A stretch of DNA of 24,000 nucleotides from an uncultured Massilia sp. (GTDB taxonomy: Bacteria > Pseudomonadota > Gammaproteobacteria > Burkholderiales > Burkholderiaceae_D). The stretch spans positions 5,600 through 29,599 of the forward strand of contig CBIHOW010000046.1 of assembly GCA_966211695.1 (NCBI GenBank), written 5' to 3'. The position numbers and the translations under genes were made by a program. Below are positions 3,501 through 9,075 of this stretch, piece by piece. Each line of letters begins with the position of its first letter. Position 1 is the first letter of the stretch. The notes beneath the pieces are model-generated. The model saw only the letters and a list, made by a program, of their open reading frames with translations, made no database searches and was not told the origin of the DNA.

Positions 3501-4836
3501 GGGCGCCCAGATCGTCATTTCGCGTTCGGGCGAAGTGCTGATCACGGACGACCACGGCCGTGAGCGCGAGCGTCACAAGGTGCCGTACGGCGCGACCCTG
3601 GTTGTCCAGGACGGCATGACGGTGAAAGCCGGTACGCCGCTGGCAACGTGGGACCCGCTGACCCGTCCGATCATTACCGAGTACGCCGGTACGATCAAGT
3701 TCGAGAACGTGGAAGAGGGCGTCACCGTCGCTCGCCAGGTGGACGAGGTCACCGGCCTGTCGACCCTGGTCGCGATCGACCCGAAACGCCGCGGCTCGGG
3801 CAAGGTCAACCGCCCGCAGGTCAAGCTGCTCAACGCCGAAGGTCAGGAAGTCAAGATCGCCGGCACCGAGCACGCCGTGACGATCGGCTTCCAGGTCGGC
3901 GCGCTGATCATGGTGAAGGATGGCCAGCAAGTGTCGGTGGGTGAAGTGCTTGCACGTATCCCGACCGAATCGCAGAAGACCCGTGACATTACCGGTGGTC
4001 TGCCGCGCGTTGCCGAGCTGTTCGAAGCCCGTTCGCCGAAAGATGCCGGCATGCTGGCGGAAGTCACCGGTACGGTCGCATTCGGTAAAGAGACCAAGGG
4101 CAAGCAGCGCCTGGAAATCACCGACATGGACGGCAACAAGCACGAGTTCCTGATCACCAAGGACAAGCAAGTGCTGGTGCACGACGGCCAGGTGGTGAAC
4201 AAGGGCGAGATGATCGTGGACGGCCCGGCCGATCCGCAAGACATCCTGCGCCTGCTGGGTATCGAAGCGCTGGCCCGCTACATCGTCGACGAAGTGCAGG
4301 ACGTGTACCGTCTGCAGGGCGTGAAGATCAACGACAAGCACATCGAGGTGATCGTTCGCCAGATGCTGCGCCGCGTGCAGATCACCGACGCCGGCGACAC
4401 CGACTACATCGTCGGCGAGCAGGTGGAGCGTTCGGAGCTGCTGGAAGAGAACGACCGCGTGACGGCGCTGAACAAGCTGCCGGCGCAGTACGAAAACGTG
4501 CTGCTGGGTATCACGAAGGCATCGCTGTCGACGGACTCGTTCATCTCGGCCGCATCGTTCCAGGAAACCACCCGCGTGCTGACCGAAGCGGCGATCATGG
4601 GCAAGCGCGACGGTCTGCGCGGCCTGAAGGAAAACGTCATCGTCGGCCGCCTGATCCCGGGCGGTACGGGTCTGGCATTCCACCGCGCCCGCAAGGAGAA
4701 AGAGCAGTGGGAAGCGGAAGAGCGCGCAGCGCTGCTGCAGCAGGAGAAGGCCAACATGGCTGCCGAGCTGCAGGCGATGGAAGACCAGCAGAATGCTGCG
4801 GCTTCGGTCGAGCAGCATCATGGCGACGGCGAGTGA
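589..4836 (+). CDS. rpoC: DNA-directed RNA polymerase subunit beta'
   Basis: 1415 aa ORF with GGAG at 577-580 upstream of the ATG. It has the N-terminal zinc-binding [20 protein letters not shown] segment, the catalytic [12 protein letters not shown] motif, and beta' homology along its full length. Confidence 0.98.
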
Positions 4837-4866
4837 TTTTCGCTTCGCTTAGCTTGATCAGCTAGT

Positions 4867-4897
4867 CAAAACGGCACCTCGAGGGGTGCCGTTTTTT
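4867..4897 (+). terminator. Intrinsic (potentially bidirectional) terminator of rpoC
   Basis: Stem acggcacc (4871-4878) pairs with ggtgccgt (4885-4892). The stem is followed by a T6 run and preceded by an A4 run. Confidence 0.85.
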
Positions 4898-4899
4898 AT
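4892..4899. repeat. Left copy of the 8 bp target-site duplication (ttttttat) of the IS
   Basis: Identical octamer at 5970-5977. Each copy directly abuts a terminal inverted repeat. Confidence 0.85.
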
Positions 4900-5969
4900 G
4901 GCTGTGTTCGCGTTATTTATGTGAACTGTAATTCGTTGCAGAGGTCAGACGCATCGTCGAGTTAACTCATGAGGAGTGACGATGCGCGGCCTGACGTTCG
5001 ACGAATTGTTCGCCATGCTGTTGGCGGTGCAGTTGTCACCAGACGACCTGGCCCGGCTACGGGAATGGATCGCCGGCATCGCCGATCCGGCCGAGTGCAT
5101 CGCGCTGATCGAGCAGGCGGCGGCGGGCCGGCCGTGTCCGCACTGCGGCTGCGCCCGCAAGCACCGCTGTGGCCAGGCGAGCGGACTGCAGCGCTTCCGT
5201 TGCCTCACATGCGGGCGCAGCCACAATCCATTGACCGGTACGCCGCTGGCTCGGCTGCGCAAGAAGGCGCTCTGGCTGCCGTATCTGCAATGCGTGCTCG
5301 AATCGCGCACGGTCCGCGATGCCGTGCAAGTCGTCGGCGTGCATCGCACGACCAGCTTCCGGTGGCGCCACCGGTTCGTGCCCGGTGCGATGCGCGATCG
5401 ACCGGCGACGTTGTCGGCCATCGTCGAGGCCGACGAAACCTCCGACTCGAGTCGCAGAAGGGTGCGCGCAACCTGACGCGGCCGGCGCGAAAGCGTGGCG
5501 GCGTCGCCAGGCGTCGGGGTATCAATCGGGAGCACGATTGCCTGCTCGTCGCGCGCGACCGCAATGGGCCGGACGCTCGACTTTCATACCGGGCGCGGCC
5601 AGGTGACGGTGAAGCAATTGCGCGAGTGTCTTACACCGGTTCTGCCAGCCGACGTTCTGCTGATCAGCGACGGCGCCATCGTCTATCGACATTTCGCGCA
5701 GCAGGCCGGCATCACGCACGAAGCTGTGAACGTGAAAGCCGGCGTGCGGGCTCGCGGCGCGATCCACGTGCAGAGCGTGAACAGCTGGCACAGCCGTTTC
5801 AAGCGCTGGCTGGTGCGATTCCGCGGCGTGGCGAGCCGCTACCTGATCCATTACTCGGGCTGGCAGCGCCTGCTGGACGATCGCCGTCTGACAACGCCAG
5901 CTCATCTGCTGTGCGCGGCGGTCCAGCTCGGCTAGACGAGTGGGTTACCGAATTACCGCGAACACAGCC
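4900..5969 (+). mobile_element. IS1595-family insertion sequence (ISXO2-like), 1070 bp, probably inactive
   Basis: 13 bp perfect terminal inverted repeats: ggctgtgttcgcg (4900-4912) and cgcgaacacagcc (5957-5969). A subterminal gtaattcg/cgaattac motif occurs at both ends. The element is flanked by an 8 bp TSD and carries one IS1595-type transposase gene. It is GC-rich like the host, unlike the adjacent cassette. Confidence 0.85.
4982..5935 (+). pseudogene. IS1595-family (ISXO2-like) transposase, interrupted by two frameshifts
   Basis: GAGGAG (4971-4976) lies 5 nt before the ATG at 4982. The N-terminal zinc ribbon is CPHCG...RFRCLTCGRSHNPLTGTPLARLRKK, and the C-terminal DDE region is ...LISDGAIVYRHFAQQAGITHEAVN...SVNSWHSRFKRWL...GVASRYL. 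The conserved central segment LESQKGARNLTRPARKRGGVARRRGINREHDCLLVARDRNG is encoded in a different frame (about 5446-5568). Reading from the ATG meets a TGA at 5474-5476. Confidence 0.8.
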
Positions 5970-5977
5970 TTTTTTAT
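5970..5977. repeat. Right copy of the 8 bp target-site duplication (ttttttat)
   Basis: Identical to 4892-4899 and directly abuts the right inverted repeat. Confidence 0.85.
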
Positions 5978-5986
5978 TGTTAACTC

Positions 5987-7842: not shown

Positions 7843-7960
7843 AAGTTTTCTCGCCACTTCGCAAATAAAGATGTTGTCAGTTCTGTGAAGTGTACCTGCC
7901 GTACTAGACTAAGAGCAATGCAAAATCTCGCCGACAGCACCTGTGATTAGCTGTCAGTAA

Positions 7961-7988
7961 AACAGGTCATCTTGGAAACAGGTCATCT
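7961..7988. repeat. 12 bp direct repeat (aacaggtcatct, 7961-7972 and 7977-7988) spanning the cassette/rpoC-fragment junction
   Basis: The sequence reads aacaggtcatct-tgga-aacaggtcatct. The last 6 nt (tcatct, 7983-7988) are also the first 6 nt of the duplicated rpoC segment (4541-4546). Confidence 0.8.
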
Positions 7989-8278
7989 CGGCCGCATCGT
8001 TCCAGGAAACCACCCGCGTGCTGACCGAAGCGGCGATCATGGGCAAGCGCGACGGTCTGCGCGGCCTGAAGGAAAACGTCATCGTCGGCCGCCTGATCCC
8101 GGGCGGTACGGGTCTGGCATTCCACCGCGCCCGCAAGGAGAAAGAGCAGTGGGAAGCGGAAGAGCGCGCAGCGCTGCTGCAGCAGGAGAAGGCCAACATG
8201 GCTGCCGAGCTGCAGGCGATGGAAGACCAGCAGAATGCTGCGGCTTCGGTCGAGCAGCATCATGGCGACGGCGAGTGA
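7983..8278 (+). pseudogene. rpoC: Orphan duplicate of the rpoC 3' end (last 98 codons, no start or RBS)
   Basis: The nucleotide sequence is identical to 4541-4836. In-frame upstream sequence hits a TAA at 7958-7960 with no start codon. The 86 aa ORF 8018-8278 in the track is only the GTG-initiated tail of this fragment. Confidence 0.9.
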
Positions 8279-8310
8279 TCTTCGCTTCTGCTTAGCTTAA
8301 TCAGCTAGTC

Positions 8311-8339
8311 AAAACGGCACCTCGAGGGGTGCCGTTTTT
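8311..8339 (+). terminator. Second copy of the rpoC intrinsic terminator
   Basis: Stem acggcacc (8314-8321) pairs with ggtgccgt (8328-8335). The T5 run that follows overlaps the last stem base (8335-8339). Confidence 0.8.
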
Positions 8340-9075
8340 ATTGCTCGTGTCCTCGCTGGAGTACCATGGCGAACATTGCAACCGTCCAGCTTCCGCCGTG
8401 CTCCTTGACGCTTTTCTTCGCGACGGTTTCGCCGTCGTCCCAACCGTCCTGCGCGAATCGCAGTGCGATGCCATCACGGCCTCCATCGACTCGTTCATAT
8501 CCGATGCACCTGGCACGCGCAGCCTTCTGACTCATGACCGGTACCGCGCGCTTGCAAACGAGTTACGCGCACATGCGGATGTCGGCACACTCATCCCTGC
8601 GGGCCACGTAGCCGTGCAATGCACGTACTTCGAAAAATCGGTCGACAGGAATTGGCTCGTGCCGGTACACCAGGACCTGAGCATCCCGGTTCGCGAGCGG
8701 GTCGAGCACCCCGCATTGCGTGGATGGTCGGAGAAGAAGGGGACATTATTCGTCCAGCCACCGACGGAATTGCTGGAGACGCTCGTCGCCGTGCGCATCC
8801 ACCTGGATCCTTGTCTGGAACACGATGGTCCATTGCAGTTCGTCCCGGCCACGCACACGCGCGGCCGTATCGACGCCAGCGAGGCCAGCCGGCTGAGGCA
8901 GAACGGCCCTGTCGTCACATGCGCGCTCGACCGCGGCGGGGTGCTCGTCATGCGGCCGCTCGCGCTGCACACGTCATCGAAAGCGACTGGAATGAGCCGG
9001 CGCCGTGTCCTGCATTTCGTGTTCGGGCCGCCCGAACCACCTTACGGGCTGCAGTGGGAGCACGCTGCCGTCTAG
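8329..9075 (+). CDS. Phytanoyl-CoA dioxygenase (PhyH) family Fe(II)/2-oxoglutarate oxygenase; start codon uncertain
   Basis: Has an HxD motif (VPVHQDLSIP) and a distal His (RPLALHTSSKA), and the overall sequence is PhyH-like. There is no in-frame ATG near the 5' end. The longest ORF starts at a GTG at 8329 inside the terminator stem. The alternative starts are TTG 8341, GTG 8347 and GTG 8398. Confidence 0.75.
   Translation: MPFLLLVSSLEYHGEHCNRPASAVLLDAFLRDGFAVVPTVLRESQCDAITASIDSFISDAPGTRSLLTHDRYRALANELRAHADVGTLIPAGHVAVQCTYFEKSVDRNWLVPVHQDLSIPVRERVEHPALRGWSEKKGTLFVQPPTELLETLVAVRIHLDPCLEHDGPLQFVPATHTRGRIDASEASRLRQNGPVVTCALDRGGVLVMRPLALHTSSKATGMSRRRVLHFVFGPPEPPYGLQWEHAAV

Follow-up and report, generated by a model that had tools for sequence, protein, structure and literature searches.

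What brings a defence operon without mobility genes to a place directly behind an essential core gene, with a second copy of that gene's own end on its far side? This question is raised by a 24,000-nucleotide stretch of DNA from an uncultured Massilia sp. (GenBank assembly GCA_966211695.1, contig CBIHOW010000046.1, positions 5,600 to 29,599 of the forward strand), which was analysed as a whole and is called the window below; coordinates count from its first base. In the window rpoC, encoding the beta' subunit of RNA polymerase, is followed by an insertion sequence (IS), a two-gene cassette of the HEC-03 anti-phage family and then a second copy of the last part of rpoC, before the conserved neighbour phyH is reached. 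The origin towards which we lean, as somewhat probable, is Campbell-type integration: a fragment from a close Massilia donor, sharing homology on one side alone, would have been recircularised and inserted by a single crossover.

Results

The end of rpoC is present twice around a foreign island

The rpoC gene (589..4836, plus strand) is an intact open reading frame (ORF) of 1415 amino acids (aa) whose start was checked, and it is collinear with rpoC of M. pinisoli at 97.6% DNA identity. Relatives of phyH and the synteny around rpoC put the window in a Massilia species (Oxalobacteraceae). Its final 296 bp, the 3' untranslated region (UTR) and the terminator form a left direct repeat (4541..4899, plus strand) and occur again as a right direct repeat (7983..8343, plus strand), which runs on into the phyH flank. 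The right repeat is 361 bp long and the displaced rpoC fragment in it has neither promoter nor start codon. The left repeat is interrupted by the IS, without which it continues as TG at 5978-5979 and also reaches 361 bp. After in silico deletion of the IS together with one of the two target duplication copies, the left copy read ...TTTTTTATTG followed across the junction by TTAACTC (seen from the T-run, the restored junction is ...GCCGTTTTTTATTG followed by TTAACTC), and the right copy at the repeat end read ...TTTTTATTG followed by CTCGTG. Comparison of these two ends thus sets both repeats at 361 bp.

Positions 4541-4837 and 7983-8279 match exactly over 297 bp, on which a repeat search, pairwise alignment and direct indexing agree, and a perfect repeat of this length cannot be attributed to chance. 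Its first base is the second of an rpoC codon, and the start thus falls at an arbitrary place within the gene. The variant sites of the left UTR (4838..4856, plus strand) are T at 4838, a 1-nt deletion after 4846 and G at 4856, against C at 8280, an extra T at 8289 and A at 8299 in the right copy. The intrinsic terminator of the left copy (4868..4897, plus strand) consists of a hairpin, AAAACGGCACC...GGTGCCGTTTT, and a run of six T (4892-4897), versus five (8335-8339) on the right. The hairpin is retained in both copies (-22.6 and -23.9 kcal/mol, z -3.6 and -4.7) and is also kept in Massilia relatives.

A first-pass annotation of the window had described direct repeats of about 361 bp of the rpoC 3' end and terminator that flank all the foreign DNA and leave rpoC whole, with an identical coding part, differences clustered in the UTR and T-run, and a second copy that begins at an arbitrary point of the gene. 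Each of these observations held. The locus thereby displays two features of Campbell integration, a shared segment standing as direct repeats around the insert and one complete beside one truncated gene copy. That rpoC stays intact is obligatory, because the gene is essential.

The island is an HEC-03 cassette and a later insertion sequence

The foreign cassette (5980..7982, minus strand) measures 2003 bp, with 43.9% GC compared with 65.2% in the remainder of the window; it stands alone in the window and is convergent with rpoC. Its first gene (5987..6466, minus strand) encodes a PIN-domain protein of 159 aa that matches PADLOC model PDLC04147 over its full length (E 7.8e-71). The second (6463..7842, minus strand) encodes an ABC ATPase of 459 aa (AAA_15/AAA_21/DUF3696 in Pfam), a full-length match to PDLC04148 (E 3e-243). 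The Pfam PIN_3 match is weak, and the PIN assignment is taken from the preprint on HEC-03 (Payne et al., bioRxiv 10.1101/2024.01.29.577857). For the ATPase we used ATG 7842 as start (459 aa), with GTG 7857 as an alternative; the exact 459-aa product is present in other assemblies, and exact-protein look-ups with the 464-aa ATPase ORF and with the 1415-aa rpoC product returned no match. Adjacent genes for an ABC ATPase (DUF3696) and a PIN protein, both matching the family models, place the cassette in HEC-03, and on these models it is a predicted anti-phage defence pair. In a homologue of the system, phage defence required both genes (Payne et al.). The PADLOC-DB name HEC-03A denotes the PIN protein and HEC-03B the ATPase; the letters are reversed in the preprint.

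The window thus shares with the published system (Payne et al.; PADLOC-DB) the ATPase and PIN pair and its full-length model matches. HEC-03 was originally described as embedded, whereas the cassette of the window is free-standing. The embedded pattern is seen in two pairs of loci (L176/L177 and L194/L195), where HEC-03 relatives 81-82% identical lie between genes for an N6_N4 methyltransferase and a ResIII/SWI2-SNF2 helicase, with reading frames that overlap or abut. The ATPase most similar to that of the window, at 95% identity, belongs to an isolate genome of Massilia aerilata (P0241, WP_379775287.1), and the next matches reach at most 84%. No close relative of the cassette was found on plasmids (at most 40% identity). 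Three viral contigs hold relatives (65%, 40% and 39% identity), none with flanking repeats.

Between the left repeat and the cassette lies an IS1595-family element (4900..5969, plus strand) of 1070 bp, with terminal inverted repeats GGCTGTGTTCGCG... that agree at 13/13 terminal bases. Its transposase matches NF033547, NF050000 and PF12762 (an N-terminal zinc finger plus DDE_Tnp_IS1595). An 8-bp target-site duplication, TTTTTTAT, stands on either side (left copy 4892..4899, inside the terminator T-run; right copy 5970..5977). Since the IS is flanked by its own duplication, it represents a separate, later hit into the left T-run. The transposase gene (4976-5935) is broken by an in-frame TGA (5474-5476) and by frame shifts that leave the central motif in another frame, so this copy is probably inactive. 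The same disrupted gene calls are present in other assemblies, and a relative at 83% identity is carried by a Massilia putida plasmid. A repeat search found no second IS copy within the window and the target duplication borders the IS alone, not the cassette; mobilisation of the cassette by the IS or as a composite transposon was rejected on these grounds.

No site-specific machinery accompanies the cassette

When every ORF in 4900-7982 was scanned against Pfam, NCBIfam and PADLOC, no integrase, excisionase or other mobility gene was found. The only protein matches were the IS1595 transposase remnants and the two HEC-03 proteins, in line with the absence of an integrase noted in the first-pass annotation. 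The cassette is minimal, ending 7 bp past the PIN stop codon on one side and 140 bp upstream of the ATPase start on the other. Our survey of HEC-03 took in 102 loci totalling 718 kb, of which about 55 are distinct and have usable flanks. No conserved non-coding cassette ends were found across these roughly 100 loci, where DNA similarity (about 70%) is limited to coding sequence, and this argues against site-specific machinery.

It is common for integrative islands to rebuild the 3' end of the gene they target and to be bordered by direct repeats, and the island of the window occupies a spot that varies between species. It could be what is left of a site-specific integrative element, or a satellite of one, aimed at the 3' end of rpoC, with a replacement tail in its attachment site and an integrase that has been lost or acts in trans. 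Such an element, however, is at odds with the lack of integrase and excisionase in the ORF scans and with repeats of 361 bp that start at an arbitrary codon position and far exceed the usual length of an attachment core. Nor does it suit an edge only 7 bp past a stop codon, the unconserved cassette ends, or the other Massilia inserts at the same spot, which lack rpoC remnants. The anchors of comparable scars described below also vary (rpoC, thiC, a TPR-glycosyltransferase gene, phyH), as do their repeat lengths. We regard this explanation as largely refuted and give it the slightest of chances.

The structure recurs in independent assemblies

Four metagenome assemblies of the European Nucleotide Archive (ENA; ERZ27336857/62/63/64) contain the same succession of left UTR variant, IS, cassette, right copy, right UTR variant and phyH, with zero differences from the window over 4784-8109. 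These contigs start about 55 nt ahead of the first single-nucleotide polymorphism (SNP) that separates left from right, as expected for an assembly graph with k=55. A Logan contig (SRR18156201) crosses the cassette and continues for 30 nt into the right copy. This recurrence indicates that the structure is not an artefact of a single assembly. Many Logan contigs of about 2.0-2.2 kb had been considered as a sign of flanking repeats; this was discarded, as short contigs are normal in that collection.

The sole SNP relative to the window lies at 8110 in the right copy, where ERZ27336857, ERZ27336863 and ERZ27336864 have C for G. This change could mark the onset of decay in the orphan fragment; alternatively, consensus calling may have removed it from the assembly of the window.

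An assembly artefact, or a population in which an empty chromosomal site coexists with a free 3.4-kb circle of one rpoC tail, IS and cassette, has to be weighed here. All the sequences come from short-read metagenome assemblies, the contigs break inside the repeat and the graph permits both forms. Against this, 4-5 independent assemblies, made with two assemblers, share both the left UTR/IS joint and the joint between the cassette and the interior of rpoC, and no replication gene is present on a circle of 3.4 kb. The contigs also run from the cassette through the right copy and the right UTR variant into phyH, and this continuity argues for integration. An artefact or free circle is consequently very improbable in our judgement.

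The terminator of rpoC is the edge of a variable spot in Massilia

To the right of the island lies a phyH-family dioxygenase gene (8398..9075, plus strand; Pfam PhyH), the conserved right-hand neighbour of rpoC in Massilia by synteny. Its start is most likely GTG 8398, giving the 225 aa found in relatives, and with this start it does not overlap the right repeat. The order rpoC then phyH is conserved in the genus and the intervening DNA differs between species. In Massilia sp. IC2-477 (L013) phyH follows rpoC directly with nothing between. Six loci (L011, L012, L014, L015, L016, L076) have unrelated genes between the rpoC terminator and phyH, and four others (L190-L193) have an RraB-DUF7668-DUF6678 block, with a glutaredoxin gene next in L190-L192. 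The variable DNA invariably begins straight after the T-run and includes at least six unrelated gene sets, so that in this genus a variable spot opens where the rpoC terminator ends.

No second rpoC remnant was found in the variable spots of these other Massilia (L011-L016, L076, L190-L193), and mobility genes are absent from their rpoC-phyH intervals. Because the spot varies between species, a donor and a recipient could easily be homologous on the rpoC side only. The empty site predicted in the first-pass annotation (rpoC, terminator, then ttgctcgtgtcc...) was borne out as an arrangement, that of L013; its predicted sequence was not matched.

The two rpoC tails look like natural alleles

Next, the three UTR differences between the copies were compared with other Massilia. 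The left-copy substitution states (T and G) are found also in L190, L192 and L193, and the right-copy states (C and A) in M. pinisoli (L011); on the sequences compared, both substitutions are polymorphisms shared with other lineages, and among these species the 1-nt deletion occurs in the left copy alone. An interim view that the right copy is ancestral at all three UTR sites was dropped once more and closer relatives showed only the deletion, on the left, to be clearly derived.

Divergence within the genus is about tenfold faster in the UTR than in the rpoC coding sequence (about 25% versus 2.4% against M. pinisoli). With so fast a UTR, three differences there and none in the coding part fit two close alleles. 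By our own estimates, which assume a neutral UTR, three UTR differences with 0 in 296 coding bases have P ~0.2 under a model of two close alleles, and the 0-1 coding changes seen where about 7 are expected have P ~0.005 under neutral drift of the right copy. Gene conversion between the copies could mask drift, so the rate test is suggestive rather than decisive. Taken together, the recurrence of the states in other lineages and the rate argument suggest that the UTR copies are two natural alleles, in agreement with the earlier proposal that the tails have different histories.

These data bear on a second explanation, one-step illegitimate insertion in situ, in which a 361-bp tandem duplication took up the foreign cassette at its joint. 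The copies would have been identical at birth and the UTR differences would have arisen later. Such an event needs no donor with the cassette behind rpoC, and it accounts simply for the 297 identical bases and for the same derived T>A change in the T-run of both copies. It sits less well with the right copy, which as an unconstrained fragment should carry about 7 changes in 296 coding bases where 0-1 are seen, so that continuous gene conversion would be required. Both left substitution states, moreover, occur in other Massilia lineages, and states already present in sister lineages are an unlikely product of new mutation.

Similar scars occur at other conserved genes

In the 718 kb of surveyed HEC-03 loci, direct repeats of at least 60 bp with a spacing of 0.8-8 kb were found twice only, and both pairs bracket the cassette. 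The first is in a Thiobacillus metagenome-assembled genome (MAG; L170), where an intact thiC is followed, 53 bp past its stop codon, by an HEC-03 cassette and then by a displaced thiC 3' fragment. This fragment is decayed (197 bp at 89% and 146 bp at 95% identity, with an internal deletion), and both junctions are present at 100% identity in an independent Logan contig. The thiC copies differ at 15 codons synonymously versus 6 non-synonymously, and end in RKV versus HKV before the stop. As the differences are mostly synonymous, most of the divergence arose under selection in separate lineages, indicating that the tails are alleles. In the second locus (L134), a TPR/GT41 gene is followed by HEC-03 and then by a 100-bp copy (97%) of the gene end that stops exactly at the stop codon.

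A third case came from the control set, in an unrelated MAG (L089), where a phyH region is duplicated (297-1421 and 4365-5483) around a 2.9-kb insert of lower GC that encodes an 885-aa protein without Pfam or PADLOC match. Identity between its copies is a mosaic, 85%, then 98.5% over 339 bp, then 86%. Since the cargo is different, the scar is not specific to HEC-03. The synonymous excess at thiC and this mosaic are what alleles would leave, not fresh duplicates, and both speak against in situ duplication. Flanking repeats of 77-79% at other loci (L132/L133, L112, L101) were rejected as insertion scars, as they appear to be paralogous coding similarity. The suggestion in the first-pass annotation that a conserved gene can serve as homology anchor thus gains from recurrences at thiC, the TPR-glycosyltransferase gene and phyH.

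A shorter repeat was seen in L182 (also L183), where 31 bp, 87% identical, at 3637-3667 and 6959-6989 consist of a KTSC-domain gene's ribosome-binding site and initial codons. They bracket a 3.3-kb block of KTSC, HEC-03 and HigBA-like toxin-antitoxin genes between hemN and purB.

The right-hand joint suggests microhomology

The junction of cassette and right repeat (7960..7991, plus strand) is a 16-bp tandem, AAACAGGTCATCTTGG / AAACAGGTCATCTCGG. Homology to rpoC begins at 7983, and the hexamer TCATCT is common to rpoC (4541-4546) and to the cassette-side tandem copy. The tandem could have formed in two ways. A cassette end ...TCATCTTGG may have been joined to an rpoC end that, after pairing at TCATCT, had gained 7 nt (AAACAGG) by copying from the cassette side; or the cassette flank may natively have held two 16-bp repeats, with the join made at TCATCT. 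Under either reading, 7982/7983 would be a microhomology-mediated illegitimate joint.

Microhomology with a short templated copy is typical of the in situ events introduced above, which could proceed by unequal end joining between sister chromosomes, by fill-in of a staggered break or by template switching of the microhomology-mediated break-induced replication (MMBIR) type. In the MMBIR version, synthesis would leave at the terminator, copy the cassette and re-enter rpoC at 4541 via TCATCT. The similar small duplication at the L134 junction can be counted on the same side. Given the scarcity of changes in the right copy, the allele-like UTR states here and the allelic copies in L170 and L089, we nevertheless hold in situ insertion to be unlikely, if the leading rival.

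At the stop codon/cassette junction of L134 (3496-3516), a spacer of 3 nt separates the gene's final 9 nt from a second copy of them (GGAGATTAG ggt GGAGATTAG). The pattern recalls the 16-bp tandem at 7960-7991, and the two may share a signature of the joining reaction.

A single crossover by a recircularised fragment fits the scar

How could DNA with homology on one side only duplicate its anchor? An experiment in E. coli bears directly on this. When linear DNA shared 1 kb with the lacZ 3' end on one side only, its usual fate was trimming, closure into a circle and integration through a single crossover that depended on RecA. Duplications of 109-950 bp resulted in 56/60 clones, and true homology-facilitated illegitimate recombination (HFIR) made up 4/60 and gave deletions (PMC3240628). 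The natural duplications of about 100, 361 and about 650 bp lie roughly within that range. The first-pass annotation had left the choice between a Campbell-type crossover and HFIR; the Campbell type is the better fit, since the E. coli duplications arose by the circle route (PMC3240628).

The course of events can be pictured as follows, where we infer the donor, the circle, the order of steps and the role of RecA. A close Massilia donor would already have had HEC-03 just behind its rpoC terminator. A fragment with the last ~361 bp of its rpoC region and the cassette would have entered a recipient that had no homology beyond the cassette. The fragment would have been trimmed and its ends joined into a non-replicating circle, with closure at 7982/7983 through the 6-nt microhomology TCATCT and the 7-nt copy AAACAGG of neighbouring sequence. 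RecA would then have promoted one crossover between the rpoC tail of the circle and that of the chromosome, leaving a promoterless second tail between cassette and phyH and making both copies donor/recipient hybrids. The IS1595-family element would have landed in the left terminator T-run afterwards. One prediction follows from the 297-bp perfect flanking repeats, namely that the island should be excisable as a circle by RecA.

Strict HFIR would start from the same one-sided anchor and also end in a microhomology joint. A linear strand would be anchored by rpoC on the left, and its non-homologous right end joined at TCATCT in the rpoC of a sister chromosome, at a point upstream of where the anchor ends. 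The process has been invoked for comparable displacement arrays in type VI secretion system (T6SS) clusters of Vibrio cholerae (PMC5361080). On one chromosome, however, HFIR replaces or deletes recipient DNA, which here is duplicated, so that a second template would be needed. In E. coli it was the minority outcome (4/60) and came with deletions, the duplications having passed through recircularisation and a single crossover (PMC3240628). It would also leave the right copy purely recipient, with differences only 3' of the crossover. The copies in L170 and L089 differ along their whole length, which fits the circle route, where both copies are hybrids, over HFIR. We consider strict HFIR improbable, though not to the degree of the artefact or the site-specific element.

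Several points weigh against single-crossover integration and temper our preference for it. It requires an earlier, unexplained insertion of the cassette behind rpoC of the donor, and no donor genome was recovered. A conspecific empty site was sought via phyH; every exact-match contig holds the island, and the next-closest phyH proteins are at most 87% identical and belong to other species. For the joint, the sequence of the parent on the cassette side is deduced from the adjacent tandem copy, not observed. The identity of all 296 coding bases and the shared derived T>A in the T-run also fit in situ duplication or later gene conversion, and, strictly, short-read graphs allow an empty chromosome with a 3.4-kb circle as well as the integrated form. 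Finally, among the other usable HEC-03 loci the scar is seen in about 2 of about 55, so it is not the usual state of the cassette.

Neighbouring DNA in the window

Beyond phyH, the window contains a curli-type locus (9128-13705, minus strand). Three tandem csgA-like paralogues (9128-10051, 10070-10996 and 11015-11956) follow one another with a period of about 945 bp; they are 75-92% identical and have an internal 33-nt periodicity that corresponds to 11-residue curlin repeats. The locus also includes a further Curlin_rpt ORF and csgG, with csgF/csgE in matching contigs. Further on, a 666-aa ORF (14188-16188) is overextended by the high GC content, and matching contigs call a 334-aa zinc alcohol dehydrogenase there.

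Discussion

The arrangement at rpoC resembles several known systems without coinciding with any of them. With Campbell-type or suicide-vector integration, including the E. coli study of Amarir-Bouhram et al. 2011 (PMC3240628), it shares a direct duplication flanking the insert, a complete beside a 5'-truncated gene copy and a process for which RecA suffices and no dedicated recombinase is needed. The window differs in recording a natural event in a wild Massilia, with defence cargo and the essential rpoC as anchor, and in that we infer its circle and donor. C-terminal displacement in rhs, contact-dependent inhibition (CDI) and T6SS loci (Jackson et al. 2009; Koskiniemi et al. 2014; Kirchberger et al. 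2017, PMC5361080) is alike in that a new 3' end arrives together with cargo, the old 3' end is orphaned downstream, the upstream anchor is conserved and no integrase takes part. There, however, the 3' ends are variable toxin domains and the protein is changed, whereas the two tails of the window encode the same protein, its cargo is a separate operon behind a terminator and its displaced tail is a silent duplicate.

HFIR and the window have a one-sided anchor and a microhomology joint in common, with the difference that HFIR normally deletes or replaces recipient DNA and here such DNA is duplicated. HFIR is known from Acinetobacter, Streptococcus pneumoniae and Pseudomonas. In recombination-driven hotspots of horizontal transfer, accessory DNA lies between core genes and two-sided exchange leaves no scar. 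The window is similar to such hotspots in its variable DNA between conserved rpoC and phyH and in the lack of mobile-element genes; it differs in the scar, which records a one-sided event.

Since the process is well known from genetics, the finding refines rather than changes current understanding. Its contribution lies in an anchor that is an essential gene and in the return of the scar at several conserved genes. The window offers an instance from nature, paralleled three times, of how a defence operon without mobility genes would move between relatives by means of host recombination and one conserved neighbour alone. The scar itself, an intact core gene with its own displaced tail downstream, could be sought systematically in the form of orphan 3' fragments and could serve to date and orient recent transfers into variable spots.

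A broader idea, which we put forward tentatively and hold to be rather doubtful, is that a quasi-mobile class, free of recombinases, is formed by defence cassettes that sit immediately downstream of strongly conserved genes. If this were true, the duplicated tail would let RecA excise a circle of cassette plus tail, and a single crossover in the conserved gene would allow that circle, or any one-sided fragment, to re-enter any relative. On this view, essential genes such as rpoC or thiC would offer landing pads that are universal and portable, and a record of such transfers could be mined from orphan 3' pieces of core genes.

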